Shown: piece after piece, positions 17,235-36,930 of the stretch
Layout: every line of letters starts with the position of its first letter
How positions within the stretch are numbered: the stretch's first letter is position 1
Assembly: GCA_902635945.1 (NCBI GenBank)
Contig: CACPPU010000001.1
Span: 431,216-495,215, forward strand
DNA: 64,000 bases
Direction of reading: 5' to 3'
DNA from: an uncultured Candidatus Actinomarina sp.
Lineage (GTDB): Bacteria; Actinomycetota; Acidimicrobiia; Actinomarinales; Actinomarinaceae
Program-made: the position numbers and the translations under genes
Notes under the pieces: model-generated
The model's input: the letters and a program-made list of their open reading frames with translations, nothing else
What the model was told of the DNA's origin: nothing
Database searches by the model: none

Positions 17235-17236
17235 AT

Positions 17237-19486: not shown

Positions 19487-19559
19487 GACAATATAAATAA
19501 TATTAAGATTTTTTATTTCTGTATAAAAAATTGAGTAAATAAATTATTAATATTATTTT

Positions 19560-20387: not shown

Positions 20388-20404
20388 GTGCCTAAAAATT
20401 ATTT

Positions 20405-21912: not shown

Positions 21913-22147
21913 AAATCTGTGTATTTAAACATATACTATATTTAGAAATAATTTAAGAATAATACCTGCGTTTTAACCAATAGATTATTAATAAACTATT
22001 TATTATATAAATGAGGTAAAAATTATTAAAAAATTAGTAAATAATAGAAAGTTTTTTCTATTTATATTAGCTTCAATATTTATTGTAAATTTAATAACAT
22101 TATTATTCTCTTTTTCAGAATTTAGCAATATTCAATGTAATGAATAT

Positions 22148-23854: not shown

Positions 23855-23885
23855 AATTTATTTACTTTTAAGTATTATCTGAATA

Positions 23886-25862
23886 TTGAAAAAAATACTA
23901 AACCTATTTGATATTTCTAACATTAAGAGGATTTCGTTTAGAAATGACATCAACGGCCTAAGAGCTATTGCTGTAATGGCAGTCGTTTTTTACCATGCTG
24001 AATTTAGTTTATTTAAAGGAGGCTGGCTTGGTGTTGATGTTTTTTTTGTTATATCTGGTTATTTAATTTCAAATATTATTATTTCGGAATTAAACAGTAA
24101 AACTTTTTCTTTTAAGAGTTTTTACAAAAGAAGGGCAAAAAGAATCCTTCCCGCATTGTTCTCAATAATATTAATTACAATACCTTTTGCCTATTTTTTA
24201 ATGAGTCCAAAGGCTATGGCGGAATATATAAGTTCCATTTTTGCCTCAGTTTTCTTTTTTGCTAATTTTCATTTCCAGAACTTAGATTTCTATGTATCTG
24301 AATCTGCAAAAGTAATGCCATTGCTTCATACCTGGAGTCTTGCTGTCGAGGAGCAATTCTATATAATTTTTCCTGTTTTTACAGTGCTAGTTTATAGATA
24401 TTTAAAAAAATACTTTACAGCATTAATTCTAATAATGACAGTTGTTTCAATTTATATAAATACATTGGTTGATGGAGTTTACAAATTCTATCAGCTTCAC
24501 TTTAGAGCTTGGGAATTACTGTTGGGTGTTCTTGTAATGATTTTTAGCAGCAATTTATCAATAAAGCATTTAGAAAAAGTTGGTTTCCCATTGTTAGTAA
24601 TTCCTATGTTTTACTTTGACGATGCTTGGATTAACGATATTGAACCAAAATTGATTTCATTAACGGGAGTTGCATTATTAATATTTTCTAATTCAAGAAA
24701 TACGGTTACAACCAAATTGCTTAGTATAAAAGCCTTGTCAATAATTGGTCTTAGTTCATACTCTATTTACTTACTTCATCAACCAATATTTGTTTTTTTT
24801 AGACTATTTAATATAAATAAACACCTATATTTTCAATCATATAGTGATTCGATAGACATAATAAATGATCCCCCTGTAATCAGTGAAAATCCTTACGGTA
24901 CCGTTTTCTTAATTTGTATAATACTAATACTCTTTTTAGTGGGCACCCAGTTATATAAATATGTAGAAATAAACAAAAAAAGGAGTTTAATTGCTCTAAT
25001 TAATTTAATATTTTTACTAATTTTTTCAATAAGTCAAACAATCAAAATCGATGTTTATAATCAAAAATTTGATCAAACCAGATTAACAAAAAATGAAGCT
25101 GTTTTTACAGACTATGGTTGCTGGGGTAACTTTTCAGACTGGAACGGGACTGCTGATATTGACAACTGCTTCATAGACAATGGTTTTAGTGAAAATTTAG
25201 TTTTTATAGGAGACTCTAGTACTGCAGCTATCGTAAAAAACTTTACTAAAGAAAATGAATTAAATTATAAATTTAACTATTTATTTTTAACACCTGCATC
25301 TCACAAAATATTTTTTTCCGAAATAGATTTTGAAGACCAATGCAATGACTGTGTTGTTGAACTATTTCGAAACAAAAAATACGTTAACACCTTTATTATT
25401 TCTTTAGAGCTACATAGATTTATTGAAGACAATACAAGTGTTTACTATACCGATAGATACTCTGAAAACAATAATTCAGAAATATTGTTTTCAAATTTAG
25501 AGCAACTCTCTTTATATGGAAAAGAAATAATTTTTATTGAACCCTTCCCAACAATGTTAGCTAATAAGCCAACTCATTTAGAAATAATACTCTCAAAAAA
25601 TATTGAAAGTATTCAAGAGATTTATATTCCATATTCAGATTGGAAAAAAAATATAAATAAAACAGATAATTTTATAGAACAGCTCAACTCCAGCATTCCT
25701 AATTTACATACGATTGAAACTCAAAATATTTTTTGTGGAACAGAATCAAATAAATGTGTTGTATATAAAAGTCCAATAACTTTCTATTTAGATCGTTACC
25801 ACCTAACTTCTAACGGTGGATTGAAAATAGCAAACGAAATAATTAAATATATAGACAAGTAA
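23886..25862 (+). CDS. Acyltransferase-3 family O-acyltransferase with C-terminal SGNH-like domain (OafA/YrhL-like)
   Basis: NGLRAIAVMAVVFYHA, GVDVFFVISGY and HTWSLAVEEQFY are acyltransferase_3 signatures. A roughly 250-aa extracytoplasmic C-terminal domain carries GDSS. TTG start. Confidence 0.8.
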   Translation: MKKILNLFDISNIKRISFRNDINGLRAIAVMAVVFYHAEFSLFKGGWLGVDVFFVISGYLISNIIISELNSKTFSFKSFYKRRAKRILPALFSIILITIPFAYFLMSPKAMAEYISSIFASVFFFANFHFQNLDFYVSESAKVMPLLHTWSLAVEEQFYIIFPVFTVLVYRYLKKYFTALILIMTVVSIYINTLVDGVYKFYQLHFRAWELLLGVLVMIFSSNLSIKHLEKVGFPLLVIPMFYFDDAWINDIEPKLISLTGVALLIFSNSRNTVTTKLLSIKALSIIGLSSYSIYLLHQPIFVFFRLFNINKHLYFQSYSDSIDIINDPPVISENPYGTVFLICIILILFLVGTQLYKYVEINKKRSLIALINLIFLLIFSISQTIKIDVYNQKFDQTRLTKNEAVFTDYGCWGNFSDWNGTADIDNCFIDNGFSENLVFIGDSSTAAIVKNFTKENELNYKFNYLFLTPASHKIFFSEIDFEDQCNDCVVELFRNKKYVNTFIISLELHRFIEDNTSVYYTDRYSENNNSEILFSNLEQLSLYGKEIIFIEPFPTMLANKPTHLEIILSKNIESIQEIYIPYSDWKKNINKTDNFIEQLNSSIPNLHTIETQNIFCGTESNKCVVYKSPITFYLDRYHLTSNGGLKIANEIIKYIDK

Positions 25863-25880
25863 AAAAATAAATTAAGTTAA

Positions 25881-26699
25881 TTAACTTAAATGTGCAGCGT
25901 AATTTAAATGTTTTTTCGAATTAGGCTTGTCTAAGTTGTGTGGTAGTGATAATACTTTCTTATTAACATTACATTTGGCAAATGTTAGCTCAACTACCTT
26001 TGGGCAATCATTTGAGGTCAGACCTCCAACATTATTTATGTGTGTATGTACAAGCTTCAAAGAAAATAATTCAATAAATTTTTTTATTTCCTCTAAATGT
26101 TCCTGAATTTCATGAAACTCTATAACTAATCCTATTATTTTGTTTTGGTGATTTAGTAACTCGCTTAAAATAGAATATTCTCCTCCCTCAATATCTATCT
26201 GGAAAAATATTTTATCAAATGTACTACTTGGATCAAATTTTTCTAATATGCTTAAGATACTTATTTCAGAGTGCTTTGTTCCAACAAATTTTTTTACAAA
26301 TTTTCTATAATTCCCATTAAGCCTAGAGTTTCTAAAATTCTTAAAAAAGAAATAGAATTTAAATAGGTATGAAAAATAATACATAGAGTCTAAAAAATAT
26401 TTAAAGTCTTTTTTTATAAATATTTGCTTTAATCTAAATTTAATTTTCTTTAAAGTACTTATGATTCCAGCAGAACCATCGAATGCTAGAAGAGGCACTT
26501 TATTTATTTTTAAAAAACTTTTTTCAAAATCAAAACTCCAACCAACTCCAATTGAAATTAGCAAGTTAGAATCAAGCAATGAATTTTTATCTATCAAGTA
26601 TGAGCCATCTTGAGTATTTCCTATTCTAATTAAATCTTTAGTATCATATGGAAATAAAAAATGGGGCAAATTAACTATTTTTATTGAATCATTAACCAT
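25881..26699 (-). CDS. FkbM-like methyltransferase
   Basis: FQIDIEGGEYSIL matches the FkbM C-terminal motif. The N-terminal part is divergent. Confidence 0.5.
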   Translation of the reverse strand: MVNDSIKIVNLPHFLFPYDTKDLIRIGNTQDGSYLIDKNSLLDSNLLISIGVGWSFDFEKSFLKINKVPLLAFDGSAGIISTLKKIKFRLKQIFIKKDFKYFLDSMYYFSYLFKFYFFFKNFRNSRLNGNYRKFVKKFVGTKHSEISILSILEKFDPSSTFDKIFFQIDIEGGEYSILSELLNHQNKIIGLVIEFHEIQEHLEEIKKFIELFSLKLVHTHINNVGGLTSNDCPKVVELTFAKCNVNKKVLSLPHNLDKPNSKKHLNYAAHLS

Positions 26700-26744
26700 G
26701 TCGTAATATTTATCTTATGAATTATATTTATTTATTCAATTCTT

Positions 26745-27551
26745 TTATTTTTTTGTAATGACAGCAAGACTCCCGGCAGAAAGTTTTGAATTTTTTGAAC
26801 CTTCATTTCTTATTGTATGATAACCGTTTTCAATATTTTGTTTTTTAGTTCGAGGAGCATAAATAATGTCTATACTTTTTATGTTTTCTGATAAAAAATT
26901 ATTCTCAAAATCACTTAAATATTCCGAAAAGAATATCTTTTCTTCGTTAAATTTCTCAAAACAATAGTGAAGCGTATCACTAAAGAGTTCTTTACTTGGT
27001 AAATTTTCGAAATCTATATCCTCTTCACTTAGCTTATACTTTTGTCCCCAATTACTGCCAGTTTGAAAGTCCCATAATGTACACATGTCTTCAATAACAT
27101 AAACACCATTATGATTTAATTTCTGAAATAATATCCCAAGACTTTGAATTGATTCTTTTTGAAAATGTGATGCATCATCAATGATAAAATCAAAGTTTAT
27201 GTCTTGAAAAATTTCATTTAATTTAACTGAATCATTCTGTTCACATAAATAAGGGTATATTTTATGACTCTCTTTTTTTAAATTATTTATAACTTCTTCA
27301 GAAAAAATTGTGTTGTTAGTCAGTGGATTTTCCGTACCTAAATGATCTATGCAGTATATGTTTCCTTTTTTGAAATATTTATCCCACATTTTTATAGATG
27401 CTCCCTTAAAAATGCCGAGCTCTAATAAATTTATTTCTTTGTTTTTTTTATTACCAAATAATTCATCATAATAATGTACATATCCATGGGAACTTTTATC
27501 TGTACCATATTTCTCGGATAATTTATAAAGTTTATTACTCGTTAATTTCAT
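26745..27551 (-). CDS. Class I SAM-dependent methyltransferase
   Basis: KYGTDKSSHGYVHYYDELF, then the LLELGIFKGASIKMW (motif I-like) and FIIDDASH pattern. Its start codon lies 8 nt from a tRNA-Phe fragment. Confidence 0.55.
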   Translation of the reverse strand: MKLTSNKLYKLSEKYGTDKSSHGYVHYYDELFGNKKNKEINLLELGIFKGASIKMWDKYFKKGNIYCIDHLGTENPLTNNTIFSEEVINNLKKESHKIYPYLCEQNDSVKLNEIFQDINFDFIIDDASHFQKESIQSLGILFQKLNHNGVYVIEDMCTLWDFQTGSNWGQKYKLSEEDIDFENLPSKELFSDTLHYCFEKFNEEKIFFSEYLSDFENNFLSENIKSIDIIYAPRTKKQNIENGYHTIRNEGSKNSKLSAGSLAVITKK

Positions 27552-27558
27552 ATTTTTT

Positions 27559-27603
27559 GTGGCCAGAGGCAGAATCGAACTGCCGACCCCTTGTTTTTCA
27601 GAC
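27559..27603 (-). repeat. Partial tRNA-Phe copy A (3' 45 nt: anticodon loop to first C of CCA), att-like direct repeat
   Basis: Exact 45-nt identity with 33102-33146 of the intact tRNA-Phe gene, in the same orientation. Confidence 0.9.
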
Positions 27604-27721
27604 TAGGGCAAACCTTGTGACCTAAGAGAATTATAACTTATTCGACACTACTAAACAGTACTTTCACAGACACAAATTTTAGGGACTGAGTATGTAAAAT
27701 ATCGTATTGTCTTCTATTGAG

Positions 27722-27742
27722 TGGACGACGTTTGGACGACGT
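27722..27742 (+). repeat. Tandem direct repeat TGGACGACGT x2 (11-nt period)
   Basis: Read directly: tggacgacgt-t-tggacgacgt. It is GC-rich in an AT-rich non-coding stretch. Confidence 0.7.
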
Positions 27743-27772
27743 CAGAATTCACAGTTCAGAGTTATGCAAAGC

Positions 27773-28621
27773 TTAGGTAAAAGTTAGTAATTTATTATTT
27801 TTATGTGATTGAGGGTTTTCTTCCAGAACTATTAAATTAGGAATAATTTCTTTTAATTCATCTATTGTGTAAAAGTTGTATTTTTTTAAAAAAAAGTCTT
27901 TCTCAAGGTTGTGACTATTAACAATCATATATCCACTCCTAGATTTGTTGATTATTTTATTTAATGCAAGGTTTTGAAGATTTCTAGGAAGTTCACTAAA
28001 TGCATAATTGGAAATTATTAAATCGAATTCAAAATCATCTTGAAAATCATCTTCTAAGCTTTTAAAAGAATAATTAAAATTTACTTTAAAATTATTTAGG
28101 AATCTATCTATCAAAAGATTAACCTCTTTTAAGTCAACAAAAAGATAATTTTCAATATTAATAATTTTATCAAGTATTACTGATTGACCACCATAGCCTG
28201 CACCAATTTCAACTACATTTATTTTTTCAGTTATATTGAGCTTACTTTTTATGTCTAATCCTGTGTATAAGTATCTTAAAGATGAACCAGTAAGCTCAGT
28301 TGTAGAATCACTAAATTTAATTTTTTTAGGATTTCCAGGTTGGTCTAGAATTTTACAAATTGAATAAATATAATCATCTGAATAATTTAAATTTTTTAAA
28401 GCTTGATAATATTCCTTAGAAAGTTCAGGTGAAACATGTTCAAGAACGCTCGTATATGAACTATTATTTCTAAAATTTTGAAACACTTCATTGTCTTCTG
28501 AGGCGATTTTACAATATTCAGGATACCTTTTATTTGAAGAACGTGATAATTTAAAGTCAGACGTTAAATACTCAATGATTTTATAGATTAACTTTAAAAC
28601 TCTGTTTTTAAGTTTTCTCAT
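27773..28621 (-). CDS. Class I SAM-dependent methyltransferase (sugar O-methyltransferase-like)
   Basis: VVEIGAGYGGQSVIL (motif I) and LIISNYAFSELP. Confidence 0.5.
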   Translation of the reverse strand: MRKLKNRVLKLIYKIIEYLTSDFKLSRSSNKRYPEYCKIASEDNEVFQNFRNNSSYTSVLEHVSPELSKEYYQALKNLNYSDDYIYSICKILDQPGNPKKIKFSDSTTELTGSSLRYLYTGLDIKSKLNITEKINVVEIGAGYGGQSVILDKIINIENYLFVDLKEVNLLIDRFLNNFKVNFNYSFKSLEDDFQDDFEFDLIISNYAFSELPRNLQNLALNKIINKSRSGYMIVNSHNLEKDFFLKKYNFYTIDELKEIIPNLIVLEENPQSHKNNKLLTFT

Positions 28622-28671
28622 ATATATTATTTTAAAGACAATATTAATTCAGTTCTTTAAAATTAGAATCA

Positions 28672-30309
28672 ATGAACATTGTTATTTATTTAATCTTTTA
28701 TTTAACTCTCTTCACGCTTGGTGAAGTAATCAGAAGTTTGGTTTTTAAAGATCAAACTAAAATTTTCGGGGTAAATATATCAGTTTTTAATCCACTCTTT
28801 TTTTTGTTTTTTGCCGCAAATACAGTATTTCTTTTAAATTTCTTTTTACCAGGACTTAATATAGTTTACGGAGTATGGGTTTTTTCATTCCTAATATTAT
28901 TTTTAAAATTAAAAACAATTAATATTGATTTTGTATTTTTAATTCCTCCTTTAATTATTTCAGCTCTCTTGGGTTTTTCGATTTATGGAATTGACTTTCA
29001 TTACGATGCAGGTTTCTATCATCTCTTAAATCAAAGCTGGATTATCAGGGAAAAGGTTGTCTTTGGTTTAAGCAATATAATGTTTCCATTAGGTAATCAA
29101 AGTTTATATGAGTATTTATCAACATTGTTTTGGATTTCGGATAATTTTATAAATCTTCATTATTTAAATTTATCTTTTATAACTGTATTTTTTCACTTTA
29201 TTTTTGAGATTACTAAAAATGGTAACTCAAATTTTTTGAGACTTGCTGGAATAACCATAACAGTGTTTGGTTTTTTAGATAATGTAGGGTACAGGGGCGG
29301 TGCAAATGGTTTCCCAAACCTCCAGCACATTGGCAAACCAGATATTACTGTTGCAGTTCTTGTAATTATTTTTAATATATTAATAATTAATTATCTGGTT
29401 TCAAATGATACATCTCACATAAATATGAAGTTAATCTTATTCTTTGGCATTTTTTTAATTCAAATAAAGCCAACCAGTATGTACATACTCTTAATAATTT
29501 TTATTCATTTTTTTAGTACTAATTTTTCTTTTTTAAAGGCCAAATCTAACTTTAGATTTATAATTTCAGCAGTAGCACTGAATTTTTTTTGGGTATTAAA
29601 AAATGTTATTACAACAGGATGCCTTCTTTTTCCTGTGTCATTTACATGTTTTTATAGTTTACCTTGGTCAAATCAAAACTTAGTAAATGAAGCAAACAAA
29701 CACTATAGCGATGCATATTTGCCATACAAGATTGGTACTAATCCAATTGAATGGTTTGACAGTTGGAGAGAAGTAAATGTAAATAATCAAATTATGATAA
29801 ATTTTTTATTAAGTTTTGTGTGTATTTATTTTCTATTGAAATTGTTTACAGTTAAATCTAATAAAAAATCTTCTAAAAGCTTTGCTGTCAAAACGTACCT
29901 GTGGATTTCTTTAATATCTTTCTTTATATCGGTGCCATTATTTAGATACTCTTACGGAATACTGTCTTCACTTATTCTAGTTTTAGTAGTAGATAGATCT
30001 CTAAAGTTTGATTTAAGCCAAAAAAGAATATTGAACAATTTGTTGTTAATTATAATTTTAATCAGCCCTGGTCTTGTTGTTCGAGGGTACAGCTATATAA
30101 ACTTTATAAATATGCCCACAAATTATATAGAGCTAAAAATTCCATCTATCCAGTTCACAAAGAGCCAGTTTTATGGCGAATTACCAATTAAAGAAACCCT
30201 AAATCCAAATAAGAAATGCTGGATTAATGTTGAGTGCAATCCGGAAGACAAACAAATTTCAAAGAGAGAATATTTTGGTTATGTTTTTTTATCAGAAGAA
30301 AACGATTAA
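28672..30309 (+). CDS. Large polytopic membrane protein (polymerase / GT-C-like)
   Basis: 545 aa with at least 12 hydrophobic helices. No soluble catalytic domain recognised. Confidence 0.45.
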   Translation: MNIVIYLIFYLTLFTLGEVIRSLVFKDQTKIFGVNISVFNPLFFLFFAANTVFLLNFFLPGLNIVYGVWVFSFLILFLKLKTINIDFVFLIPPLIISALLGFSIYGIDFHYDAGFYHLLNQSWIIREKVVFGLSNIMFPLGNQSLYEYLSTLFWISDNFINLHYLNLSFITVFFHFIFEITKNGNSNFLRLAGITITVFGFLDNVGYRGGANGFPNLQHIGKPDITVAVLVIIFNILIINYLVSNDTSHINMKLILFFGIFLIQIKPTSMYILLIIFIHFFSTNFSFLKAKSNFRFIISAVALNFFWVLKNVITTGCLLFPVSFTCFYSLPWSNQNLVNEANKHYSDAYLPYKIGTNPIEWFDSWREVNVNNQIMINFLLSFVCIYFLLKLFTVKSNKKSSKSFAVKTYLWISLISFFISVPLFRYSYGILSSLILVLVVDRSLKFDLSQKRILNNLLLIIILISPGLVVRGYSYINFINMPTNYIELKIPSIQFTKSQFYGELPIKETLNPNKKCWINVECNPEDKQISKREYFGYVFLSEEND

Positions 30310-30412
30310 TCTAGAGCCCATTTAAAAAAAGTCTTCTAAAGTATTTGGGGTAGTAAAACTACTCCCCAGAAAAAAAATATACCCCCCACGTTTATTGGGT
30401 TTATGGATAGGT

Positions 30413-30422
30413 TGGACGACGT
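30413..30422 (+). repeat. Third copy of TGGACGACGT
   Basis: An exact 10-mer (11-mer TTGGACGACGT shared with 27732-27742), 26 nt left of tRNA-Phe fragment B. Confidence 0.7.
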
Positions 30423-30447
30423 TTTGTTTTTAAGAGGAAAAAACCCT

Positions 30448-30491
30448 GTGGCCAGAGGCAGAATCGAACTGCCGACCCCTTGTTTTTCAGA
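30448..30491 (-). repeat. Partial tRNA-Phe copy B (3' 44 nt), att-like direct repeat
   Basis: Exact 44-nt identity with 33102-33145 and 27559-27602. Confidence 0.9.
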
Positions 30492-30634
30492 TAAGGGTAA
30501 ACCTTTAAGGCCTACTTAATTTTACCTTATTCATTATTAATGTTCGCTCGTTGTTAGACACCCATATAACGTGAGTTAGCGGTAAATAAATAGGAATAAT
30601 TTATTGAGCTGAGGGCAGAATGTGGGCAGTTTTA

Positions 30635-30919
30635 TTAGTCATCTATTTCGAGCCACAAAATAATGAAACCGACAAGAATAAACGCTCCACCGAAATAGCC
30701 AAAAAAGTATTTGGATAACAGAGAAAAGGTATCCCAATAATAGATTAAGTAAACACCAGCCGCAGCCATAGTAAAAGGTAGATTTTTTCTGTCAGTGAGA
30801 ATATTAGCTATCACTTCAAATGGACCACTTACGTTGTGTTTGACCTTAAAATCATAATATCTGATTCCAAAAAAAAGAATTAATGCAGCAATCAGATATA
30901 TCATAATTTTACCTTTCAC
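30635..30919 (-). CDS. Small integral membrane protein (about 3 TM), unknown function
   Basis: 94 aa. Hydrophobic segments are IYLIAALILFFGI, AAAGVYLIYYW and GAFILVGFIILWL. It overlaps the upstream gene by 11 nt. Confidence 0.5.
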   Translation of the reverse strand: MKGKIMIYLIAALILFFGIRYYDFKVKHNVSGPFEVIANILTDRKNLPFTMAAAGVYLIYYWDTFSLLSKYFFGYFGGAFILVGFIILWLEIDD

Positions 30920-31202
30920 TTAAAACAGTTAGTAATGAAAATACATAAGCTAACCCTAAGCCTGCAAATGTACCGATATACCAAAACCAAATATTTGGGT
31001 CTGAGTACCCATACATTTCTCTTGCCCAAAATGGAAATGAAGCAACACCTAAGGGCATTGGGAATGTCCAGATTAAAGCCCAAAATGTTCCAACTAAATA
31101 TGACATTGCCCAAAAGGCTTTCCAGAGATATACTGTCCCGGAAATAAGCGGACCGGCAATCATAGAGGTGTACATCAACACTCTGAAAATTAAAGAAAAC
31201 AC
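30909..31202 (-). CDS. Small Trp/Phe-rich integral membrane protein (about 3 TM), unknown function
   Basis: 97 aa, with MIAGPLISGTVYLW, YLVGTFWALIWTF and IGTFAGLGLAYVFSLL. Confidence 0.5.
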   Translation of the reverse strand: MFSLIFRVLMYTSMIAGPLISGTVYLWKAFWAMSYLVGTFWALIWTFPMPLGVASFPFWAREMYGYSDPNIWFWYIGTFAGLGLAYVFSLLTVLSER

Positions 31203-31232
31203 TTTGTACCTTTTATACTTCTTAAGTAATTA

Positions 31233-32255
31233 TTATTTGGAAAATTTGATAACACAAACACTATCTGCATATAAATCATAATCATTCCTGACAATCAGCT
31301 CGATTTTAAATTCTGGATTTTCCGATTCAACATATCTCTCTATCAACTGACCATAAAGGGTTGTAGTATTAGCCTCTGGAAAAGGAAAGACGTCATCATT
31401 AAAACCTTTTTCAAAATATGCACGACTATAATTTTCCCCATCTTTTTGTATAAAGGTTCCAAAATATGCAAGACCAGCATTACCAGTATTTATATTAAAT
31501 TTAATTTCATAAGAATCTTCAGTTATTTCTTCTGCTGGACAGTCAAGCATATCTATTTCTGGAGGTAAGGCATCAATAACCCACTCTTTATAGGTACTTT
31601 CAAAACCTTCTAACTCAGTTCGAGTTGCTAAATATGTATACCAAATTGGAACATCCATTGGGACAGGTTCCCAATCTTTTTCAATATAAGCCCACCAAGT
31701 TCCGTTTTGATAAAATGGAAGTCCATATAGATATGTCCACTCAGGGTAATCTGAATTATCGTCAAGAAACTTACAGTTATAGCTCACTGTTAAGAAATAT
31801 CCGTATCTTTTATTGCTTTCATCAATAACTATATGCATAGAGTCCGCGTAATAATCATTTGCTTCGTTTAGTTCTAAGTATTCGTCTAGCAAAGCTTCGT
31901 GTACAGTACCTCTTTCTTTTCTAAAACATTCATAATTATTAAATACAAAATATTTAGGTTCTCTTTTGTTTAGTAAAAGTGTTTTATTAGCTTCTTCATA
32001 CTTAAAAACTACATAATTATTAATTCTATTTGCTTTGTAATAGGCAAGAAAATTATCACCCAGTTTATTAATATCAACTTCGGTTGTGGTAGTTGAGTTA
32101 GAGATTATTTGAGAAACTTCAGTAATTTCAATATCATTTTCTGTGAGATTAGGTTCATCTCGAAACCAAATTAATGTTGATGCTAATGCAATAGATATAA
32201 CTAAAACAAAAGCAAAAGTAGCATCAGTGATTTTAGTCATTAAATAATCTTTCAA
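31233..32255 (-). CDS. N-terminally membrane-anchored exported protein, unknown function
   Basis: 340 aa with a single N-terminal helix FAFVLVISIALASTLIW, followed by an acidic, Tyr/Trp-rich domain with 4 Cys. No family recognised. Confidence 0.5.
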   Translation of the reverse strand: MKDYLMTKITDATFAFVLVISIALASTLIWFRDEPNLTENDIEITEVSQIISNSTTTTEVDINKLGDNFLAYYKANRINNYVVFKYEEANKTLLLNKREPKYFVFNNYECFRKERGTVHEALLDEYLELNEANDYYADSMHIVIDESNKRYGYFLTVSYNCKFLDDNSDYPEWTYLYGLPFYQNGTWWAYIEKDWEPVPMDVPIWYTYLATRTELEGFESTYKEWVIDALPPEIDMLDCPAEEITEDSYEIKFNINTGNAGLAYFGTFIQKDGENYSRAYFEKGFNDDVFPFPEANTTTLYGQLIERYVESENPEFKIELIVRNDYDLYADSVCVIKFSK

Positions 32256-32769
32256 TCAACACTTCTAAGAATGACTTTACAATTATTGGCTCGTCACAAC
32301 TATTAAAGAAAGAAAAATTTTCTGCTAATTCAAGAAGTTCATCATTTACCTCTTCATATGAATAATACAAATCCATATTTCCAGTACTCACAAAACCAAA
32401 TAAATATGCCGAAGAAGTTGATAAAAGTTCAAAAGATTTCACTGTATCCTCATTATGCTTTTCGTTTTTATAATTAGGTTCAAGCAATAGTGACTGATTG
32501 TAAATTTCTTCAAATTCAAGTACTGCGTCAGCAAATATATCAACTAATCCTAAAATTAAATCTTCATCTCCACTTGTAATAGCATCATTAAACAAACCAA
32601 AAGCTAGGGTACTCTTACTTGCCTTTTCATCTAAAAACTTGAAATCTTCTTCATATTGAAGACATTTTTCATATTCTTCTGCATAACTACTATCTTCAGG
32701 AATAAATTGAATTTCAGATGGACCACACGAAGTAATAAGAAGTGAAATAATTAATACTTTTTTAAGCAC
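32233..32769 (-). CDS. Putative lipoprotein, acidic helical, unknown function
   Basis: A signal peptide with lipobox-like LLITSC at residues 10-15. It overlaps its neighbours by 8 and 23 nt. Confidence 0.5.
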   Translation of the reverse strand: MLKKVLIISLLITSCGPSEIQFIPEDSSYAEEYEKCLQYEEDFKFLDEKASKSTLAFGLFNDAITSGDEDLILGLVDIFADAVLEFEEIYNQSLLLEPNYKNEKHNEDTVKSFELLSTSSAYLFGFVSTGNMDLYYSYEEVNDELLELAENFSFFNSCDEPIIVKSFLEVLIERLFND

Positions 32770-33004
32770 TATTGTTTAATTTTCTTTTAATCCACTTGAA
32801 CATGCTTGTTATGAGTCTAATTATTACTGTTGGAAATACATAAAGAAAAATATAAGTAAGCACAATAAATAAGAGATATTCACCAACTCCTGCCCTAACT
32901 TCAGAAAATACTGGGACATCAGTGTAAGTATTAAAAATAGAAAAACCGATTATGAATACAACGTATATTTTCCCACCAGTAGATTCAGGAATTAAATTTT
33001 TCAT
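32762..33004 (-). CDS. Small membrane protein (2 TM), unknown function
   Basis: 80 aa, with IYVVFIIGFSIF and LLFIVLTYIFLYVFPTVII. It is the first gene of the islet-2 operon. Confidence 0.45.
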   Translation of the reverse strand: MKNLIPESTGGKIYVVFIIGFSIFNTYTDVPVFSEVRAGVGEYLLFIVLTYIFLYVFPTVIIRLITSMFKWIKRKLNNSA

Positions 33005-33010
33005 AAAAAA

Positions 33011-33054
33011 ATTTTATCATTAACGAATTTTTGATGTCGCCAAAGTTGTCGCCA
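33011..33054 (-). promoter_or_regulatory. Putative leaderless promoter with duplicated TGGCGACA element
   Basis: On the minus strand: TGGCGACA-actt-TGGCGACA-(18 nt)-TAAAAT (preceded by TGa, an extended -10)-tttttt-ATG. The -10 lies 6 nt from the start codon. Confidence 0.35.
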
Positions 33055-33099
33055 TTTAAGAAAGTTCGTGTTCTGACTTCTGTAAACACCAATAGTTAT

Positions 33100-33175
33100 T
33101 GGTGGCCAGAGGCAGAATCGAACTGCCGACCCCTTGTTTTTCAGACAAGTGCTCTACCGACTGAGCTATCTGGCC
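33100..33175 (-). tRNA. tRNA-Phe (GAA), CCA encoded
   Basis: The reverse complement folds as a cloverleaf: GGCCAGA/TCTGGCC acceptor, GCTC/GAGC D stem, CTTGT-CTGAAAA-ACAAG anticodon arm, GGCAG-TTCGATT-CTGCC T arm, A-CCA. Confidence 0.95.
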
Positions 33176-33178
33176 AAA

Positions 33179-33256
33179 TGGCGGGGACGACGGGATTCGA
33201 ACCCGCGACCTCCTGCGTGACAGGCAGGCGTGAACTCCAGACTTCACCACGCCCCC
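33179..33256 (-). tRNA. tRNA-Asp (GTC), CCA encoded
   Basis: Reverse complement: GGGGGCG acceptor, CCTGC-CTGTCAC-GCAGG anticodon arm, GCGGG-TTCGAAT-CCCGT T arm, G-CCA. It sits 3 nt from tRNA-Phe. Confidence 0.9.
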
Positions 33257-33321
33257 GTAAGAATTGAGTATACATATAAAAAAAACTCAAACAAAACAAA
33301 TAGTTGCAATATTATAGAGAT

Positions 33322-34785
33322 ATGAAGTTAAGTAGTATTGTAAAATATGCCGTAAGGTTCTTTTCTTTACAGTTAATCCTTACATACCTACTTATTTTTT
33401 ATTTCAATAATTTTTTAATTTCTAAAGCAATCTGTGATTACTGTGCCGGATCTAGTTTTAGAATGCAAATTGAAAATAATTTGTGGGAAGACAGAAATAG
33501 GTTTTTTTCCTTTATTGATGAAAGATTCATAACTATTGAATCATTTATTATTTTATTTGTATTTCTTTTCTTAATTATTTTGTATTCAACAAAGTTTTAT
33601 ACGTATGTTAACGAACTTTCTTATTCATTAGATAGAAGCTATATAGATGAGTTTTTTTCAATTTATTTACTTTGGACAAGTAGTTTTGTTGTATTTTTAA
33701 CAATTTTTAGAATTGCAAATCTAATTTCAAGAGGATACCTAGTGTTACTTACTCTTCTAGTACCACTGATACTATTAGTTTTTAGAAACAGTGAATTTTT
33801 ATCTTCACTGCTTGGTAGATCAGTAACAGGAGAAAACTATATAACTTTTAATTTAGAGGAGGATTCAGGATACAGAAATCTTAGAATTATGACTTTTAGA
33901 AATAATGTTGAGTCTTTTCTAAATATTGATTTAGAAGATAGTGATCAGGTTATTGAAAAAATTGATAAGATAAATAAATCGATTAACTTAAATCTGATAA
34001 TTTTAAATTTTAATAATCAAAACAAGATTGATAAGAAATTAGAAGAATACTTGGTAAATCTTAATAAGAAAATTCTTATAATTTGTAAAAAACAAATGTC
34101 TTTTACAAATAACTTCTTGTACAGACAAGAAGAAGTTTCTGGAAGATATTTGGCTTATTTTAATAACGACGTTCAGTATGGCTCTAAATATATTCTTAAA
34201 CGTTTCATAGATATTTTTCTAGCTTCTTTTGGAATTATGGTATTTTCTCCTTTATTTTTATTTATCTATTTATACATTTTATATCTTGATGGCAGTCCTT
34301 CAATAATAAAGCAAAACAGAGTTGGCCTTCATGGGATGCCTTTTACTATGTACAAATTTAGAACCATGAAGAATAATGCGCATGATCTTAGGGGTGAACT
34401 TGAAGACTTGAATAAAAATGATGAAGTTATATTTAAAATAGAAAATGATCCAAGAATTATTAAAGGTACTCAAGTTTTAAGAAATTTTAGTCTTGATGAA
34501 CTGCCTCAGTTATTTAATGTATTAAAGGGCAACATGTCTCTAGTTGGTCCGCGACCTTTATTTGAAGAAGATACAAATTATTTTGATAAAAATTATATGC
34601 GTAGATTAAATGTTTTACCAGGTATAACTGGATTGTTACAAATAAATGAGAGGAATACTTCTGATTTTGAAACTTGGTACAAATATGATATTGAGTACAT
34701 AGATAACTGGACTCTGTATTTAGACTTAAAAATTATTTTAATGACCCCATTTGCGTTGTTTAGTTCAAAAATAAAAGGGATTTAG
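33322..34785 (+). CDS. Polyprenyl-phosphate glycosylphosphotransferase (WbaP/bacterial sugar transferase family), initiating enzyme
   Basis: The C-terminal domain has KRFIDIFLASFGIMVFSPLFL, QNRVG, FTMYKFRTM and DELPQLFNVLKGNMSLVGPRP. N-terminal TM helices are present. I took the ATG at 33322; an alternative TTG is at 33304. Confidence 0.85.
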   Translation: MKLSSIVKYAVRFFSLQLILTYLLIFYFNNFLISKAICDYCAGSSFRMQIENNLWEDRNRFFSFIDERFITIESFIILFVFLFLIILYSTKFYTYVNELSYSLDRSYIDEFFSIYLLWTSSFVVFLTIFRIANLISRGYLVLLTLLVPLILLVFRNSEFLSSLLGRSVTGENYITFNLEEDSGYRNLRIMTFRNNVESFLNIDLEDSDQVIEKIDKINKSINLNLIILNFNNQNKIDKKLEEYLVNLNKKILIICKKQMSFTNNFLYRQEEVSGRYLAYFNNDVQYGSKYILKRFIDIFLASFGIMVFSPLFLFIYLYILYLDGSPSIIKQNRVGLHGMPFTMYKFRTMKNNAHDLRGELEDLNKNDEVIFKIENDPRIIKGTQVLRNFSLDELPQLFNVLKGNMSLVGPRPLFEEDTNYFDKNYMRRLNVLPGITGLLQINERNTSDFETWYKYDIEYIDNWTLYLDLKIILMTPFALFSSKIKGI

Positions 34786-34787
34786 AG

Positions 34788-34860
34788 TGGGTCGGGTGGG
34801 AATCGAACCCACGACCTTGAGCTTAAAAGGCTCCTGCTCTGCCGATTGAGCTACCGACCC
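34788..34860 (-). tRNA. tRNA-Lys (TTT), no encoded CCA
   Basis: Reverse complement: GGGTCGG/CCGACCC acceptor, anticodon loop CTTTTAA, GTGGG-TTCGATT-CCCAC T arm. It begins 2 nt after the stop of the upstream CDS. Confidence 0.9.
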
Positions 34861-34922
34861 AGAATTAATAATTAAATATTAAGAATAATGTCAAATCAGT
34901 CTAATGAGATAAGAATTTTATT

Positions 34923-35621
34923 TTAAATATACCATTCACCATGCTCACGCATTAACTCTAACTTTTTATCACCCCTGACATAATTGAAGTGGATTAAGCT
35001 TGGCGTCAGTGATTCATAATACTGGTAATAATGTGCACCATTTGGGTATTGGTCTAAAGGAAGTATTGAATAGCTAAATTTTTTTCTATTTTTGTTTATA
35101 TATGATTGGTCATGAGTTTTATATTTAGTAAATTTTTTAACAAGTTTTTTTGTTGGTTTAAAAAATTCTTGAGTTGTTTCATTAGATTTTATGTACATAA
35201 ATCCTGCACAAACCCATTCACGATTTGGTTTTGACGGTCTTAAATCATTTTGAAAAACTATATCTACATTTGGAGAGAATTTAGATAAATCATTTACAAA
35301 GTCTTTCTTAAAGACAATGTCTCCGTCAACGTAAACTACATTGTCTTTTTTTAATAATTCTCTATAAATTAGTTCAAATTTTACAAGCATCAAATTACCA
35401 AAATTCTCATCTGCTTGACTAAAGTAATTATTTGCAAAATCTTCTTTTTCAAATAGCTCAACATTGTCGTGAATTTTAGAAAAATAGTTAAAAGAAGACT
35501 CGTCTAAAGCATAAACTTTAATATCTGTGTTCGCGTTGTTAAATTTATTTGAAGCAAGTAGGTTTTCTGTATAATCTACATATCCTGCGTTTGTAAAAGT
35601 TATAAAGTTCAATTCTGACAA
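34923..35621 (-). CDS. Nucleotide-diphospho-sugar transferase-like (GT-A fold) protein
   Basis: FITFTNAGYVDYTENLL and VYVDGDIVF (DxD) resemble the stand-alone nucleotide-diphospho-sugar transferase family. Confidence 0.45.
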   Translation of the reverse strand: MSELNFITFTNAGYVDYTENLLASNKFNNANTDIKVYALDESSFNYFSKIHDNVELFEKEDFANNYFSQADENFGNLMLVKFELIYRELLKKDNVVYVDGDIVFKKDFVNDLSKFSPNVDIVFQNDLRPSKPNREWVCAGFMYIKSNETTQEFFKPTKKLVKKFTKYKTHDQSYINKNRKKFSYSILPLDQYPNGAHYYQYYESLTPSLIHFNYVRGDKKLELMREHGEWYI

Positions 35622-35626
35622 GCTAA

Positions 35627-35941
35627 TTATTCTTCCTCTTGTGCATTATTAATATTTATGTACTCACCAACTTTGTTTTTTGTTTTAGTTAATGTTGCTT
35701 CAAATTCATCATTTATAGTCTTAATAAGTTCTTTTGAAGCTTGTTTAATTTCCTCATCTTTAGTAGTTGATTCTATTATTTCAGACAATGTTTTAAATAT
35801 ACCCTTTGTATTTTCCACGATTGAAAATAGTGATTCTTTTAGATCGTTGACTAACTCTTCTTCTTCAAATTTTTCATGAATCTTTTCTGAAATTTCAGAG
35901 AGTTCTTTGTTGAGTTTTGACCAATTATCTTTATCTGTCAT
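35627..35941 (-). CDS. Small acidic helical protein, unknown function
   Basis: 104 aa, Glu/Lys-rich with no TM. It sits 5 nt upstream of the next gene. Confidence 0.35.
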   Translation of the reverse strand: MTDKDNWSKLNKELSEISEKIHEKFEEEELVNDLKESLFSIVENTKGIFKTLSEIIESTTKDEEIKQASKELIKTINDEFEATLTKTKNKVGEYININNAQEEE

Positions 35942-35961
35942 AAGAGAATTATAAATAGAAT

Positions 35962-36804: not shown

Positions 36805-36930
36805 ACAGAAATTTTATCAAAATGTTTATGTAATATTAAATTAAATTATTAAACAAATTGGCTTGAGGTTAATTAAAAATTAACTACTAAGGAATTAATT
36901 ATTAATATACTTTATATTTGATAGCTTTAT

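Follow-up and report, generated by a model that had tools for sequence, protein, structure and literature searches.

Gene cassettes bounded by tRNA direct repeats are known from the flexible genomic island fGI1 of 'Ca. Actinomarinales' (Lopez-Perez et al. 2020, PMC7771536), where the tRNA-repeat-bounded cassettes of the Actinomarina island were reported without an agent being named and no identifiable mobile elements were found in the genomes. 'Actinomarina, resolved' (bioRxiv 10.64898/2026.04.03.716425) describes the same region as hypervariable and tRNA-bounded and calls the cassette mechanism unknown. Among other marine systems, the tycheposons of Prochlorococcus use seven tRNA targets, tRNA-Phe not among them (Hackl et al., bioRxiv 10.1101/2020.12.28.424599), marine Synechococcus carries tycheposon-like insertions at tRNA-Phe(GAA) (Grebert et al. 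2022, PMC8995045), and VEIMEs have been described as virion-encapsidated integrative mobile elements (Eppley et al. 2022, PMC9618062).

The window analyzed here, a stretch of 64 kb of Candidatus Actinomarina DNA, contains the tRNA-Phe/Asp/Lys/Arg boundary of the cell-envelope ('glycotype') island. The islets lie in an envelope island of the typical replacement type. The junctions at this boundary are as follows, with strand given where a feature has one.

26745-27551, minus strand: methyltransferase-like gene of the glycotype island (ORF list, Pfam), its ATG 7 nt from copy A
27559-27602: core copy A, exact 44-mer; outermost attR-type junction (islet 1 P arm, core, chromosomal island flank)
27603-30447: islet 1, between copies A and B, interior 2845 nt
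30448-30491: core copy B, exact 44-mer; attR/attL hybrid junction (islet 2 P arm, core, islet 1 P' arm)
30492-33101: islet 2, between copy B and the tRNA-Phe core, interior 2610 nt
33100-33175, minus strand: intact tRNA-Phe(GAA) (ARAGORN; Rfam RF00005, 75.3 bits; exact 44-mer)
33179-33256, minus strand: tRNA-Asp(GTC) (ARAGORN, Rfam), conserved upstream neighbor of tRNA-Phe

The 44-mer, GTGGCCAGAGGCAGAATCGAACTGCCGACCCCTTGTTTTTCAGA, has three exact occurrences on the plus strand (27559-27602, 30448-30491 and 33102-33145), all in direct orientation, and within tRNA-Phe(GAA) it begins at the final base of the 5' strand of the anticodon stem and ends at the first C of CCA. None would be expected by chance (0/100 shuffles), and the whole 64 kb holds no further copy when up to 14 mismatches are allowed. 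An earlier note on this DNA had described three exact 44-nt copies in direct orientation that extend from the anticodon loop as far as the first C of CCA, with copy A matching for 45 nt; the exact-match search bears this out, while the gap that separates copy A from the methyltransferase-like gene's ATG, given there as 8 nt, is 7 nt (27552-27558). Start-to-start distances of 2889 and 2654 nt between cores give the interior lengths listed. The tRNA-Phe gene, identical across ~45 Ca. Actinomarina genomes, is an attL-type junction in which a native 5' half meets the core, tRNA-Asp marks the fixed side of the hotspot, and a sugar transferase gene comes next after the Asp-Phe pair in most related loci. 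To their right, copies A and B have similar flanks that both resemble a degenerate tRNA 5' half, and past copy A toward the island flank, arm or word motifs are absent. Copy B with its flank (30448-30526) was also called by ARAGORN as a 79-nt 'tRNA-Phe'; this candidate, for which there is no Rfam call, was rejected as a tRNA-like attP arm.

The 44-mer is present in 58 loci, nearly all of them in Ca. Actinomarina/OCS155 genomes, the only exceptions being contigs of three MAGs labeled Gammaproteobacteria or Pelagibacteraceae (L001, L002 and L049). About 20 of the 58 loci have two to three copies, 208-4077 nt apart. That the duplications are assembly artefacts, which the earlier note had raised as a caveat, has next to no credibility: a SAG and metagenomes of other projects yielded the two-copy architecture in independent assemblies, and arrays in ~20 further genomes complete the refutation. 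In every copy the identity block stops sharply at the anticodon loop and the flanks diverge, and this is the signature of a site-specific crossover, the integrase presumably cutting within the 44-mer and probably at the anticodon loop.

Differences in occupancy are apparent among close relatives, loci L059 to L062 having been retrieved with a protein identical to that encoded at 26745-27551. Two of these relatives, the SAG L059 and the metagenome contig L060, match the window at 99.93-100% identity on either side and lack 30492-33101; their islet 2-less junction falls inside the 44-mer, tRNA-Phe is intact at the L059 junction, and copy B is the exact breakpoint of this presence/absence polymorphism. 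L062 is 99.86% identical to the window up to copy A, past which 105 of 105 nt are those of the P arm of an integrase-bearing element (L183/L184), pointing to a different occupant. As the earlier note had anticipated, both single and double occupancy are seen in near-identical genomes, and the junctions coincide exactly with the 44-mer. L059 and L060 do not tell a gain of islet 2 from its loss; RecA-dependent deletion between the 44-nt direct repeats would leave an identical junction.

A search of metagenomes with the truncated integrase of L008 as the query retrieved 80 loci with relatives, about 50 of which have the 44-mer, exact or with one mismatch; this integrase-based scan returned no attP-type junction of islet 1 or 2 themselves. 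Six contigs of the set have k-mer-sized terminal overlaps. Circular contigs of ~6-8.4 kb from marine metagenomes encode an integrase, an excisionase and a helicase, and L209 and L210, from two TARA samples, are one and the same circle of 5977 bp opened at different breakpoints, with 0 differences between the two and no whole tRNA. Domain matches are to Phage_integrase (E 3e-17, 4e-22), an HTH_17 excisionase and AAA_25 (E 1e-26). The tyrosine integrase has a predicted lambda-like N-terminal arm-binding domain (an AP2-like match on its N terminus lies under the Pfam cut-off, at 25.9 vs 33.3 bits), a protein of 250-330 aa is encoded upstream of it, and the helicase is AAA_25/DnaB-like, with PHROG matches in phage primase/helicase families.

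In the attP of these elements, a P' arm on one side and a P arm on the other flank a 44-bp core whose sequence is identical to that of the tRNA 3' part, and the attP shares a box, a hairpin, GTAAATAA and tandem words with the arms in the window. Circular attP-bearing elements, of the kind sought through circular junctions, do exist, and they combine a tyrosine integrase with the exact 44-mer. Most elements have a word common to both attP arms. The 8-nt words are putative arm-type binding sites; their covariation is weak with the integrase N-domain (Spearman -0.18) and the excisionase (-0.22) and about 0 with the helicase, and L164 and L166 have integrases 100% identical and different P-arm words. 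The circular contigs could in principle reflect integrated copies in tandem instead of free circles. A related Actinomarina-type contig (L192) has an integrated integrase-bearing copy at tRNA-Asp/tRNA-Phe, with the tRNA at one end and a partial copy at the other, and an integrase-less islet comes after it. The circular elements are the likely agent of the cassettes.

It is very improbable that no site-specific recombinase ever acted here and that the tRNA fragments are homology anchors or duplication products, with general recombination shuffling the cassettes. The replacement-type envelope island around the islets would suit such a history, as would the lack of mobile elements in PMC7771536 and the unknown mechanism in bioRxiv 10.64898/2026.04.03.716425, but it is largely refuted by circles that combine a tyrosine integrase and an excisionase with an exact 44-mer attP, by the integrated copy in L192 between tRNA and partial copy, and by the sharp end of the identity block at the anticodon loop.

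The gene content of the circles raises another explanation, namely that they are phage satellites (PICI/VEIME-like) packaged and moved by an Actinomarina helper phage and that the islets are satellite remnants, not elements that transfer themselves. Small size, a tyrosine integrase, an AlpA/excisionase-type HTH, a primase/helicase-type ATPase matching phage primase/helicase families in PHROG and the lack of capsid genes are shared with marine VEIMEs (PMC9618062), and the gene set is also that of the PICI-like tycheposons (bioRxiv 10.1101/2020.12.28.424599). VEIMEs, however, are defined by virion packaging; the 44-mer is missing from IMG/VR (2.9 million contigs) and from the INPHARED phage set, IMG/VR relatives of the integrase are just 29-39% identical, and no terminase, capsid or packaging genes were seen among the elements with Pfam and PHROG. 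We regard a satellite identity as unlikely, although it would be compatible with integrase-mediated origin of the islets, because it is about the vehicle and not the integration mechanism.

The two islets retain the arms of such elements. Islet 1 is organized as follows.

27603-27772: P arm, with a tRNA-5'-half-like start, CTAGGGCAAACCTTGTGACC
27633-27643: box ATAACTTATTC in the P arm
27723-27730 and 27734-27741: words GGACGACG in the P arm
27742-27762: three 7-mers, TCAGAAT/TCACAGT/TCAGAGT, in the P arm
27773-30309: cargo, two ORFs
27773-28621, minus strand: 282-aa protein, weakly SAM-methyltransferase-like (Pfam Methyltransf_31, E 4.5e-4, under the gathering cut-off)
28672-30309, plus strand: 545-aa multi-pass membrane protein (DUF8201; precomputed Pfam PF26626 on the identical L059 protein)
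30310-30447: P' arm, with a single word GGACGACG at 30414-30421, terminating in ..AAAAACCCT

The P arm of islet 1 is a mosaic, as it shares its initial 21 nt without a difference with the L183-type autonomous element, while the stretch that follows is 92% identical to L153. Triple repeats like those of this arm come just before the integrase stop codon in autonomous elements. The P' arm has CCCCCC..GTTTATTGGGTTT, a motif typical of P' arms in the elements, its class adjoins the tRNA or partial copies in many genomes (L024, L036, L047, L050 and others), and the arm word GGACGACG is common to both ends of the islet. The island of L010 encodes a homologue 28% identical to an islet 1 cargo protein. 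A 665-bp islet cargo is present in L010 with another P arm.

Islet 2 differs in its words.

30492-30634: P arm at the distal end, with a tRNA-5'-half-like stretch at 30492-30521
30522-30532: box TTACCTTATTC in the P arm
about 30545-30582: hairpin region in the P arm
30582-30589: GTAAATAA in the P arm
30613-30618 and 30624-30629: tandem words GGGCAG in the P arm
30635-33004, minus strand: cargo, five ORFs in the orientation of the tRNA
30635-30919, minus strand: small membrane protein, 94 aa
30909-31202, minus strand: small membrane protein, 97 aa
31233-32255, minus strand: 340-aa protein
32233-32769, minus strand: 178-aa protein with a lipoprotein-like N terminus
32762-33004, minus strand: 80-aa protein
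33005-33101: tRNA-proximal P' arm, with tandem words TGTCGCC at 33035-33041 and 33047-33053

Within the P arm, 30545-30611 has a 100% match in L179, in the P arm behind the integrase stop, but with different words, and the word stretch is identical in the P arms of L161/L222. The P' arm is 94-97% identical to that of the L220 attP, words excepted, and its GTCGCC words also occur in integrase-bearing L149 and in L225-227. The cargo ORFs match no family in Pfam or PHROG. In L225-227, whose lineage has flanks 67-74% identical, the block 31229-33040 is 93% identical, and a 51% identical homologue of the 340-aa protein is cargo of integrase-bearing L181. The arm words are mismatched (GGGCAG in P vs GTCGCC in P'), and islet 2 is a chimera of two element lineages, a GGGCAG-word remnant joined to a GTCGCC-word remnant. 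Both islets are delimited by 44-mers, but islet 2 is not a single element and fuses two lineages. If the words confer specificity, the mismatch argues against islet 2 being a clean substrate.

Neither the islets nor the rest of the 64-kb window yielded a recombinase, excisionase or replication gene when Pfam was applied to the seven islet ORFs, a family-specific integrase HMM to all six frames of the window, and tblastn with 736 stop-to-stop frames of >=70 aa from integrase-bearing relatives. No integrase of any kind was found in the 64 kb, and the 2.8-kb and 2.6-kb segments are as devoid of such genes as the earlier note had held. Its proposal of decayed remnants gains from intermediates in L008 and L063, in which cargo and a 5'-truncated integrase adjoin a similar P arm; all 13 of 13 database homologues of that integrase fragment are also truncated, some merely by the end of a short contig.

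Because of the occupancy polymorphism, the attP circles, the mobility of islets and the chimerism of islet 2, we are fairly confident that the islets are integrase-less derivatives of tRNA-Phe-targeting circular elements, formed via serial site-specific integration. Serial tyrosine-recombinase integration into a tRNA 3' half had been suggested from the window alone, and occupancy at the 44-mer, the L062 occupant and the attP circles now agree with it. A family of small integrative elements would target tRNA-Phe(GAA); recombination in the core would rebuild the tRNA and leave a 44-nt copy at the far end, and a newcomer would insert at the rebuilt tRNA and shift older occupants outward, islet 2 presumably being the most recent arrival. 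Both islets would have kept their arms and lost integrase, excisionase and helicase, with only envelope-related cargo remaining.

A tentative alternative accepts the same origin and takes the islets to be inert scars, with present strain differences arising solely from homologous recombination, through RecA deletion between 44-nt repeats and through replacement of arrays after uptake, the tRNA genes, cores and arms serving as homology. An integrase is absent from the window and nearly all 58 genomic arrays, array integrase genes are truncated, and the islet 2 words are mismatched; the mosaic arms (part L183-like and part L153-like in the islet 1 P arm, another P arm in L010) show homologous exchange between arms. 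However, certain integrase-less islets are 98.8-99.6% identical where the adjacent chromosome is 69-73% identical, at differing array positions, and at such identities integrase-less islets must have spread horizontally between lineages, and recently. Inertness is hard to reconcile with identical single-gene islets in lineages only ~70% identical, whose boundaries lie exactly at the core and for which 44 nt are distally the sole shared homology, with paired-word arms that remain intact though drift should erase them, and with the common arrays of complete elements and integrase-less islets (L192), and we consider it possible but doubtful. The integrase-less islets would be moved by the integrase of a helper element, either in trans or by co-excision with a complete neighbor (accretion-mobilization). 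The idea of cargo-only modules mobilized in trans gains from integrase-less islets that are 99% identical between lineages with flanks of ~70%, and that such mobilization continues is plausible.

Elements of this type probably build the variable cell-surface island of Actinomarina. The islets invite comparison with CIMEs, which have att sites related to those of a complete element, lack integrase/excisionase and lie in tandem with complete elements at a shared tRNA or gene 3' end, where the recombinase of the neighbor is proposed to mobilize them; CIMEs and the accretion-mobilization model reportedly go back to Pavlovic 2004 and Bellanger 2011 and the ICESt1/ICESt3 family of Streptococcus thermophilus. 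Related att sites, the lack of integrase/excisionase, tandem placement at a tRNA and a proposed mobilization would all be shared by the Actinomarina islets, but a conjugation module is absent from these elements and islets, unlike in the ICESt1/ICESt3-CIME system. Among actinomycete integrative elements, pSE211, whose attB lies in the tRNA-Phe of Saccharopolyspora erythraea, and pSAM2 resemble the Actinomarina elements in their actinobacterial host, int-xis pair, attP identity over the tRNA 3' part and a circular form, which is free and replicative in pSE211/pSAM2 and seen as circular contigs here. In contrast to these, the Actinomarina elements are roughly half the size and have an AAA_25/DnaB-like ATPase as the replication protein, and neither an FtsK-like Tra nor a RepSA/RepAM-type initiator was found among the ten proteins scanned in L209 and L146.

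Tycheposons, to which the earlier note had compared the locus, share with the Actinomarina elements a tRNA-targeting tyrosine recombinase, an optional excisionase, a primase/helicase-type module and cargo, and in both, serial integration gives arrays with partial tRNAs between and degenerate remnants in islands; the Synechococcus insertions (PMC8995045) likewise have the recombinase at the distal end beside a tRNA remnant. The Actinomarina elements belong to another phylum (Actinomycetota), are smaller, and carry envelope/glycosylation genes rather than the nutrient-uptake genes of tycheposons. The likeness holds as analogy and not as membership, because the host is Ca. Actinomarina and not a picocyanobacterium.

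The fGI1 cassettes (PMC7771536) match the window in organism group, island and observation, including small fragments that distinguish close strains and a single-copy tRNA-Phe. Beyond the fGI1 papers, we document the exact 44-nt core, the P/P' arm architecture, integrase-bearing circular elements, decay intermediates and one specific pair of single and double occupancy. What is thereby added to the published description is a set of occupancy differences, a likely agent, movement of integrase-less islets between lineages and the chimerism of islet 2.

Our analysis centers on a 44-nt core, GTGGCCAGAGGCAGAATCGAACTGCCGACCCCTTGTTTTTCAGA, which is present in exactly three copies in the window, all on the plus strand, where none is expected by chance. 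The three exact direct copies described in the earlier note are thereby confirmed at their coordinates. In the tRNA sense, the core opens with the final base on the 5' side of the anticodon stem, takes in the anticodon loop, variable loop, T arm, and 3' acceptor strand, and closes with the first C of CCA.

Core copies and tRNA gene in the window
27559-27602, plus strand, core copy A, exact 44-mer
30448-30491, plus strand, core copy B, exact 44-mer
33102-33145, plus strand, core copy C, exact 44-mer within the intact tRNA-Phe(GAA)
33100-33175, minus strand, intact tRNA-Phe(GAA), called by ARAGORN and Rfam

The copies delimit islet 1 (between A and B) and islet 2 (between B and C), with interiors of 2845 and 2610 nt, respectively. 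A search of the window for weaker tRNA-Phe fragments found no fourth copy, even at 14 mismatches, and extra copies of the 3' halves of tRNA-Asp, tRNA-Lys, and tRNA-Arg were likewise not found there. The right flanks of copies A and B are alike for ~15 nt past the 44-mer, where the intact tRNA differs, a first hint that both islets come from related elements. ARAGORN also calls a second "tRNA-Phe" of 79 nt (30448-30526, anticodon at position 39), composed of copy B and the tRNA-like P arm, the element-derived flank to its right; Rfam, run on the window, does not call it a tRNA. P arms keep partial acceptor-stem and anticodon-stem complementarity. A spacer of 7 nt (27552-27558), not 8 nt as first reported, separates copy A from the start codon (ATG) of the methyltransferase gene at 26745-27551. 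Cargo genes often begin 1 to 10 nt from a tRNA 3' end or partial copy, as at this spacer and at the 44-mer loci L011, L025, L048, and L036. Speculatively, islet cargo may be expressed by read-through from the tRNA promoter.

Variation at the cores is seen in close relatives, 4 contigs that we retrieved as encoding exactly the methyltransferase that adjoins copy A. One of these, from a SAG (L059, GCA_902593885.1), is 99.98% identical to the window over 16745-30495 and 100% identical over 33102-40205, with the two alignments overlapping in the core, such that islet 1 and the intact tRNA-Phe are present and islet 2 is precisely missing. An independent metagenome contig, L060, has the same single occupancy without islet 2, a difference that either gain or loss of islet 2 would produce, and the flanks of both contigs are 99.9-100% identical to the window. 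In a TARA contig, L062, the match to the window (99.86%) extends 21 nt past copy A and stops there; the 105 nt that remain show no difference from the P arm of the integrase-bearing loci L183/L184. The earlier note had proposed comparing the repeat junctions among relatives and took invariance there as grounds to abandon its reading. Among these contigs and the window, the site holds one islet, two islets, or a different occupant, joined at the 44-mer, so that objection falls away.

The islets themselves carry cargo within an envelope-biosynthesis island, as indicated by neighbors assigned by Pfam to Bac_transf, Glycos_transf_2, Acyl_transf_3/SGNH, FkbM methyltransferase, and DUF8201 families. 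Genes for tRNA-Phe, -Asp, -Lys, and -Arg lie at 33.1-40.5 kb of the window, and GC content to the left of the tRNA is 22-29%.

Assigned genes of islet 1
27773-28621, minus strand, weakly SAM-methyltransferase-like protein (Pfam)
28672-30309, plus strand, 545-aa multi-pass membrane protein, identical to an L059 protein annotated DUF8201

Islet 2 has five ORFs of unassigned function, all in the tRNA direction and one with a lipoprotein-like N-terminus. Pfam searches of the seven islet ORFs found no recombinase, excisionase, or replication protein. Against the window, an integrase fragment from locus L008 gave no match by tblastn, an integrase-family HMM gave none in six-frame translations, and tblastn with all ORFs of the complete, integrase-bearing elements described below matched att-region and cargo sequence only. 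The claim that neither islet encodes a recombinase, excisionase, or replication function thus withstood these searches. Exact-protein look-ups of the islet 2 proteins of 80, 335, and 178 aa returned no record, and a 93% relative was reached by homology search. At 30345-30375, a G+C-rich hairpin (GGGGTAGTAAAACTACTCCCC) with an A-run behind it separates the 545-aa ORF from the P' arm of islet 1, the flank to the left of copy B.

To place the array among genomes, we scanned for the 44-mer in a database holding one genome per GTDB species. The 58 loci found are nearly all in SAGs and MAGs of Candidatus Actinomarina, OCS155, or Actinomarinales, and their stretch upstream of the tRNA (tRNA-Asp, sugar transferase, tRNA-Lys, etc.) is syntenic with the window at 65-76% identity. 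The accession series of the SAG GCA_902593885.1 also agrees with that of the Ca. Actinomarina SAGs among these loci. A picocyanobacterial origin, suggested by low GC and likeness to tycheposons, was rejected on this near confinement of the 44-mer to Ca. Actinomarina. A phage or viral source of the att sequence was also rejected, as the 44-mer is missing in IMG/VR and the copy A region is unmatched in INPHARED phages; integrase relatives in IMG/VR are just 29-39% identical, generic prophage integrases. Three contigs with the Actinomarina 44-mer come from MAGs labelled Gammaproteobacteria or Pelagibacteraceae (JBJKYB010000001.1, PAHR01000037.1, and JAYNQN010000033.1; loci L001, L002, and L049) and are probably mis-binned; the first has Actinomarina-like synteny, with 70% identity to the right flank of the window.

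Arrays are common among these loci. With all loci re-oriented and scanned at up to 8 mismatches, ~20 have two or three copies, spaced 208-4077 nt apart, and the islets between copies mostly hold 1 to 3 genes. The usual cargo comprises FkbM-type methyltransferases, glycosyltransferases, large membrane proteins, a GNAT-like protein, and small membrane proteins, and 26 of the 34 distinct islet ORFs of at least 100 aa read in the tRNA direction. No intact recombinase was found in any islet between copies in the surveyed genomic arrays. A second landing site is seen in L022, L040, L055, and L056, where a truncated tRNA-Phe (44-mer plus ~9 tRNA bases) abuts a conserved core gene (MKRIYTFGHEQV...), with element P' arms and lipoprotein cargo on the far side; on the 912-kb contig JAYQJM010000005.1, this site is inverted and 371 kb from the real tRNA-Phe (L040 versus L051).

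The flanks of the cores have a shared architecture. To the right of every partial copy, the P arm begins with a degenerate tRNA 5' half (consensus ~YAnnGGCAnACCnnTTGnCCTT), followed by a box, TTTAACTTATTC, an inverted repeat (CGCTCATT...AATGAGCAG), GTAAATAA, two tandem words, and T-runs. The words are 7-9 nt long and repeat in tandem with an 11-nt period. To the left of copies, the P' arm has tandem words 30-60 nt from the core and one of three types of end, ..AAAAACCCT, ..TTATAGnTATTG, or ..CCTATGTTTATT. Words vary among islets, and both ends of one islet usually share a word.

Words in the islet arms of the window
27723 and 27734, islet 1 P arm, GGACGACG twice
30414, islet 1 P' arm, GGACGACG once
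30613 and 30624, islet 2 P arm, GGGCAG twice
33035 and 33047, islet 2 P' arm, TGTCGCC twice

The inverted repeat between the box and GTAAATAA, conserved in the P arms of most elements (e.g., 30545-30582), is visible by eye and has apparent compensatory variants, such as ACGCT...AGCGT; as it has no T-run on either strand, it is unlike a terminator. A quick MAFFT/RNAalifold run on 10 P arms gave no consensus structure. Cargo-less minimal elements, with ~164 nt between two cores, are present in L036 (oriented 2558-2721) and also in L054, on the left flank of the tRNA. They consist of a P arm, one word pair, and a P' end and look like deletion products between the two word pairs.

To what elements could such arms belong? 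One islet, in L008, encodes a 145-aa C-terminal tyrosine recombinase fragment (HxxR...GH...Y) adjoining a P arm like that of copy A, and in L063 an FkbM methyltransferase gene, the fragment, words, and a P arm come in that order. These truncated integrases are decay intermediates. All 13 homologues of the L008 fragment in protein databases are truncated, some merely by the ends of short contigs. Full-length genes came only from a scan of metagenome DNA with an alignment of those homologues, which gave 80 loci, many with full-length genes, and in ~50 of the 80 the 44-mer, exact or with 1 mismatch, lies a few hundred nucleotides downstream of the integrase. In six contigs, the two ends overlap by an assembler k-mer length, marking them as putative circles of 5977-8351 bp; one 5977-bp circle was recovered from two TARA samples (L209 and L210) with zero differences and different breakpoints, and ARAGORN found no whole tRNA on it. 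The element integrase (380-408 aa) has Phage_integrase and SAM-like core-binding domains and a sub-threshold AP2-like N-terminus. Circles also encode a 250-330-aa protein just upstream of the integrase (orfX), an HTH_17 excisionase, a small Cys-rich protein, a 405-450-aa helicase-type AAA_25/DnaB-like ATPase, and, in some, cargo such as Thr-rich lipoproteins. Complete elements differ in cargo, from none in the 5977-bp circle to >4 kb.

The attP of these elements reads P' arm, exact 44-mer, P arm, with box, hairpin, GTAAATAA, and tandem words as in the islet arms. Triple repeats of 7-10 nt separate its words from the integrase stop codon, and in most elements one word is common to both arms. 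In L192/L193, where the element is integrated, tRNA-Asp and tRNA-Phe are followed by a complete element of 9 kb with, in order, cargo, helicase, excisionase, orfX, and integrase; beyond it come a partial copy, an integrase-less islet of 1.5 kb, and a second partial copy. A 1138-aa cargo ORF occupies 1287-4703 of the L192 locus. Our literature search found no description of Actinomarina integrase-excisionase-helicase circles. These elements are a plausible agent for the island's open integration mechanism.

Comparison of the window islets with complete elements points to specific relatives. The P arm of islet 2 at 30545-30611 is 100% identical (67 nt) to that following the L179 integrase, with words GGGCAG versus GTTGCTAG, and its GGGCAG word stretch is identical in the P arms of L161/L222. 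Its P' arm is 94-97% identical to that of L220, words excepted, and the P' words GTCGCC recur in integrase-bearing L149. As for cargo, a 340-aa protein of islet 2 has a 51% identical homologue carried by integrase-bearing L181, and a three-gene block (31229-33040) is 93% identical in L225-227, where it lies in a tRNA-Phe islet adjoining a P arm with GTCGCC words, in a lineage whose flanks are 67-74% identical to the window. Because its arms and cargo match different elements (L179 and L161/L222; L220, L149, and L225-227), islet 2 is, as judged from sequence comparison, a fusion of two element types. Its distal part, the P arm and two small membrane ORFs, comes from a GGGCAG-type element, and its proximal part, the three genes and the P' arm, from a GTCGCC-type element. 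The P arm of islet 1 matches L183 in its first 21 of 21 nt and then L153 at 92%, and it has three 7-mers where complete elements have the triple repeats and then the integrase stop.

Evidence of islet dissemination is apparent from near-identical, integrase-less islets in diverged chromosomes.

Islets shared between diverged chromosomes
665-bp islet with one 127-aa membrane protein; L019, L031, L042; islets 98.9-99.6% identical; adjacent chromosome ~72% or not alignable
992-bp islet; L030, L057; islets 98.8% identical; adjacent chromosome 70%
~800-bp islet; L018+L028, L019; islets 99.3% identical; adjacent chromosome 69-73%

Such islets point to recent spread between distant lineages, landing exactly at the core; array positions differ, the 665-bp islet taking the first place after the tRNA in L031 and L042 and the second in L019. 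Two routes can be considered. The pattern fits mobilization by a helper integrase, which could act in trans or through co-excision with an adjacent complete element. Homologous exchange through the cores and conserved arms could also spread islets and does happen, as mosaic arms (L010 and the P arm of islet 1) show. Building on helper mobilization, we tentatively propose, as a possibility less likely than not, that the Actinomarina tRNA-Phe array is a two-tier cassette system and the main diversifier of the surface. Rare ~6-kb helpers encoding integrase, excisionase, and helicase would mobilize a large pool of integrase-less, often single-gene islets, each holding a complete attP-derived arm pair, and the arm words would be an exchangeable address code pairing an islet with a helper lineage. 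Within arm sequence that is otherwise identical, both word copies on both arms switch together. If true, the array would be an integron-like gene-capture platform on a tRNA gene and the main engine of cell-surface diversity in a bacterium that ranks among the smallest free-living ones and is otherwise said to have no mobile elements.

The role of the words can be weighed further. Arms are 94-100% identical between window and complete elements (30545-30629 versus L179; 33034-33101 versus L220), yet both tandem 7-8-nt words are replaced together, which supports a role in specificity and suggests that words may be exchangeable specificity modules, not drifting sequence. Lambda-type attP sites have arm-type repeats on either side of the core, bound by an N-terminal arm-binding domain of the integrase. 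In the complete elements, tandem words lie on both arms, the same word in most attPs, and the AP2-like N-terminal match of the integrase is below the Pfam cut-off. The N-terminal ~45 residues are swapped among integrase genes otherwise 95-99% identical (L145-L214), with identities of N-terminus versus remainder of 0.70 versus 0.99 (L157/L158), 0.67 versus 0.99 (L211/L212), and 0.60 versus 0.95 (L161/L166). However, two observations argue against a simple specificity role: L164 and L166 have identical integrases and different P-arm words, and in this small sample words covaried weakly or not at all with the integrase N-domain, the remainder of the integrase, or the domains of orfX, excisionase, and helicase.

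Few bacteria of the surface ocean are as small and as abundant as Ca. Actinomarina, whose envelope island turns over fast. To its study we add concrete candidate agents, circular integrase-excisionase-helicase elements whose attP matches tRNA-Phe exactly; a natural before/after pair, window and SAG, with islet 2 as the sole difference; and evidence of integrase-less single-gene islets spreading across distant lineages. Together, these open to direct test how the island diversifies in a streamlined oligotroph, and hence how its phage receptors vary.

The setting has precedents. Lopez-Perez et al. (PMC7771536) described fGI1 of Ca. Actinomarinales, with tRNA-direct-repeat cassettes, in genomes without identifiable mobile genetic elements, and a 2026 preprint on 84 complete genomes (bioRxiv 10.64898/2026.04.03.716425) reported the same hypervariable region, bounded by Phe/Arg/Lys/Asp tRNAs; its authors say that the integration mechanism has yet to be found. 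Both treat tRNAs as hot spots and leave that mechanism open. The window shares with fGI1 cassettes (PMC7771536) the host order, the envelope-island place by the tRNA, direct repeats, and small-cassette differences between close strains. The array belongs to this published cassette pattern of Actinomarinales islands, its agent being previously unknown, and the earlier note correctly read a structure of a known kind.

Among other tRNA-associated systems, AICEs carry an FtsK/SpoIIIE-type Tra and a RepSA, RepAM, or prim-pol replication initiator. Pfam and PHROGs searches of the L209 and L146 proteins gave just Phage_integrase, HTH_17, and AAA_25/DnaB-like matches and no AICE Tra or initiator; with no Tra and no RepSA-type initiator, the element is not an AICE. 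CIMEs are flanked by att sites like those of a complete element at the same target, lack recombination genes, and are moved by a helper recombinase. The window islets resemble them, having no recombination genes of their own and arms that match those of integrase-bearing elements (L179, L220, L183, and L153, with the words of L149). Helper mobilization would be in keeping with 99%-identical islets across ~70% flanks and with co-residence with a complete element in L192.

Tycheposons target seven Prochlorococcus island genes, Pro, Ser, Ala, Thr, Arg, Met, and tmRNA (Hackl et al., bioRxiv 10.1101/2020.12.28.424599), whereas the target here is the tRNA-Phe(GAA) of an actinobacterium. In both, a full and a partial tRNA flank the element and partial tRNAs separate tandem elements. 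Tycheposons carry a tycheposon-clade tyrosine, or large serine, recombinase at one end; the window islets carry none, and related complete elements have a tyrosine integrase at the distal end. As host and target tRNA differ, the array is not a tycheposon by the published definition. The picocyanobacterial comparison of the earlier note stands in that the arrays appear to work alike but is an analogy only, given the near confinement of the 44-mer to Ca. Actinomarina. The array would work in the manner of tycheposon arrays and of CIME/ICE accretion, and tycheposon-type genome plasticity would extend from cyanobacteria to marine Actinomycetota.
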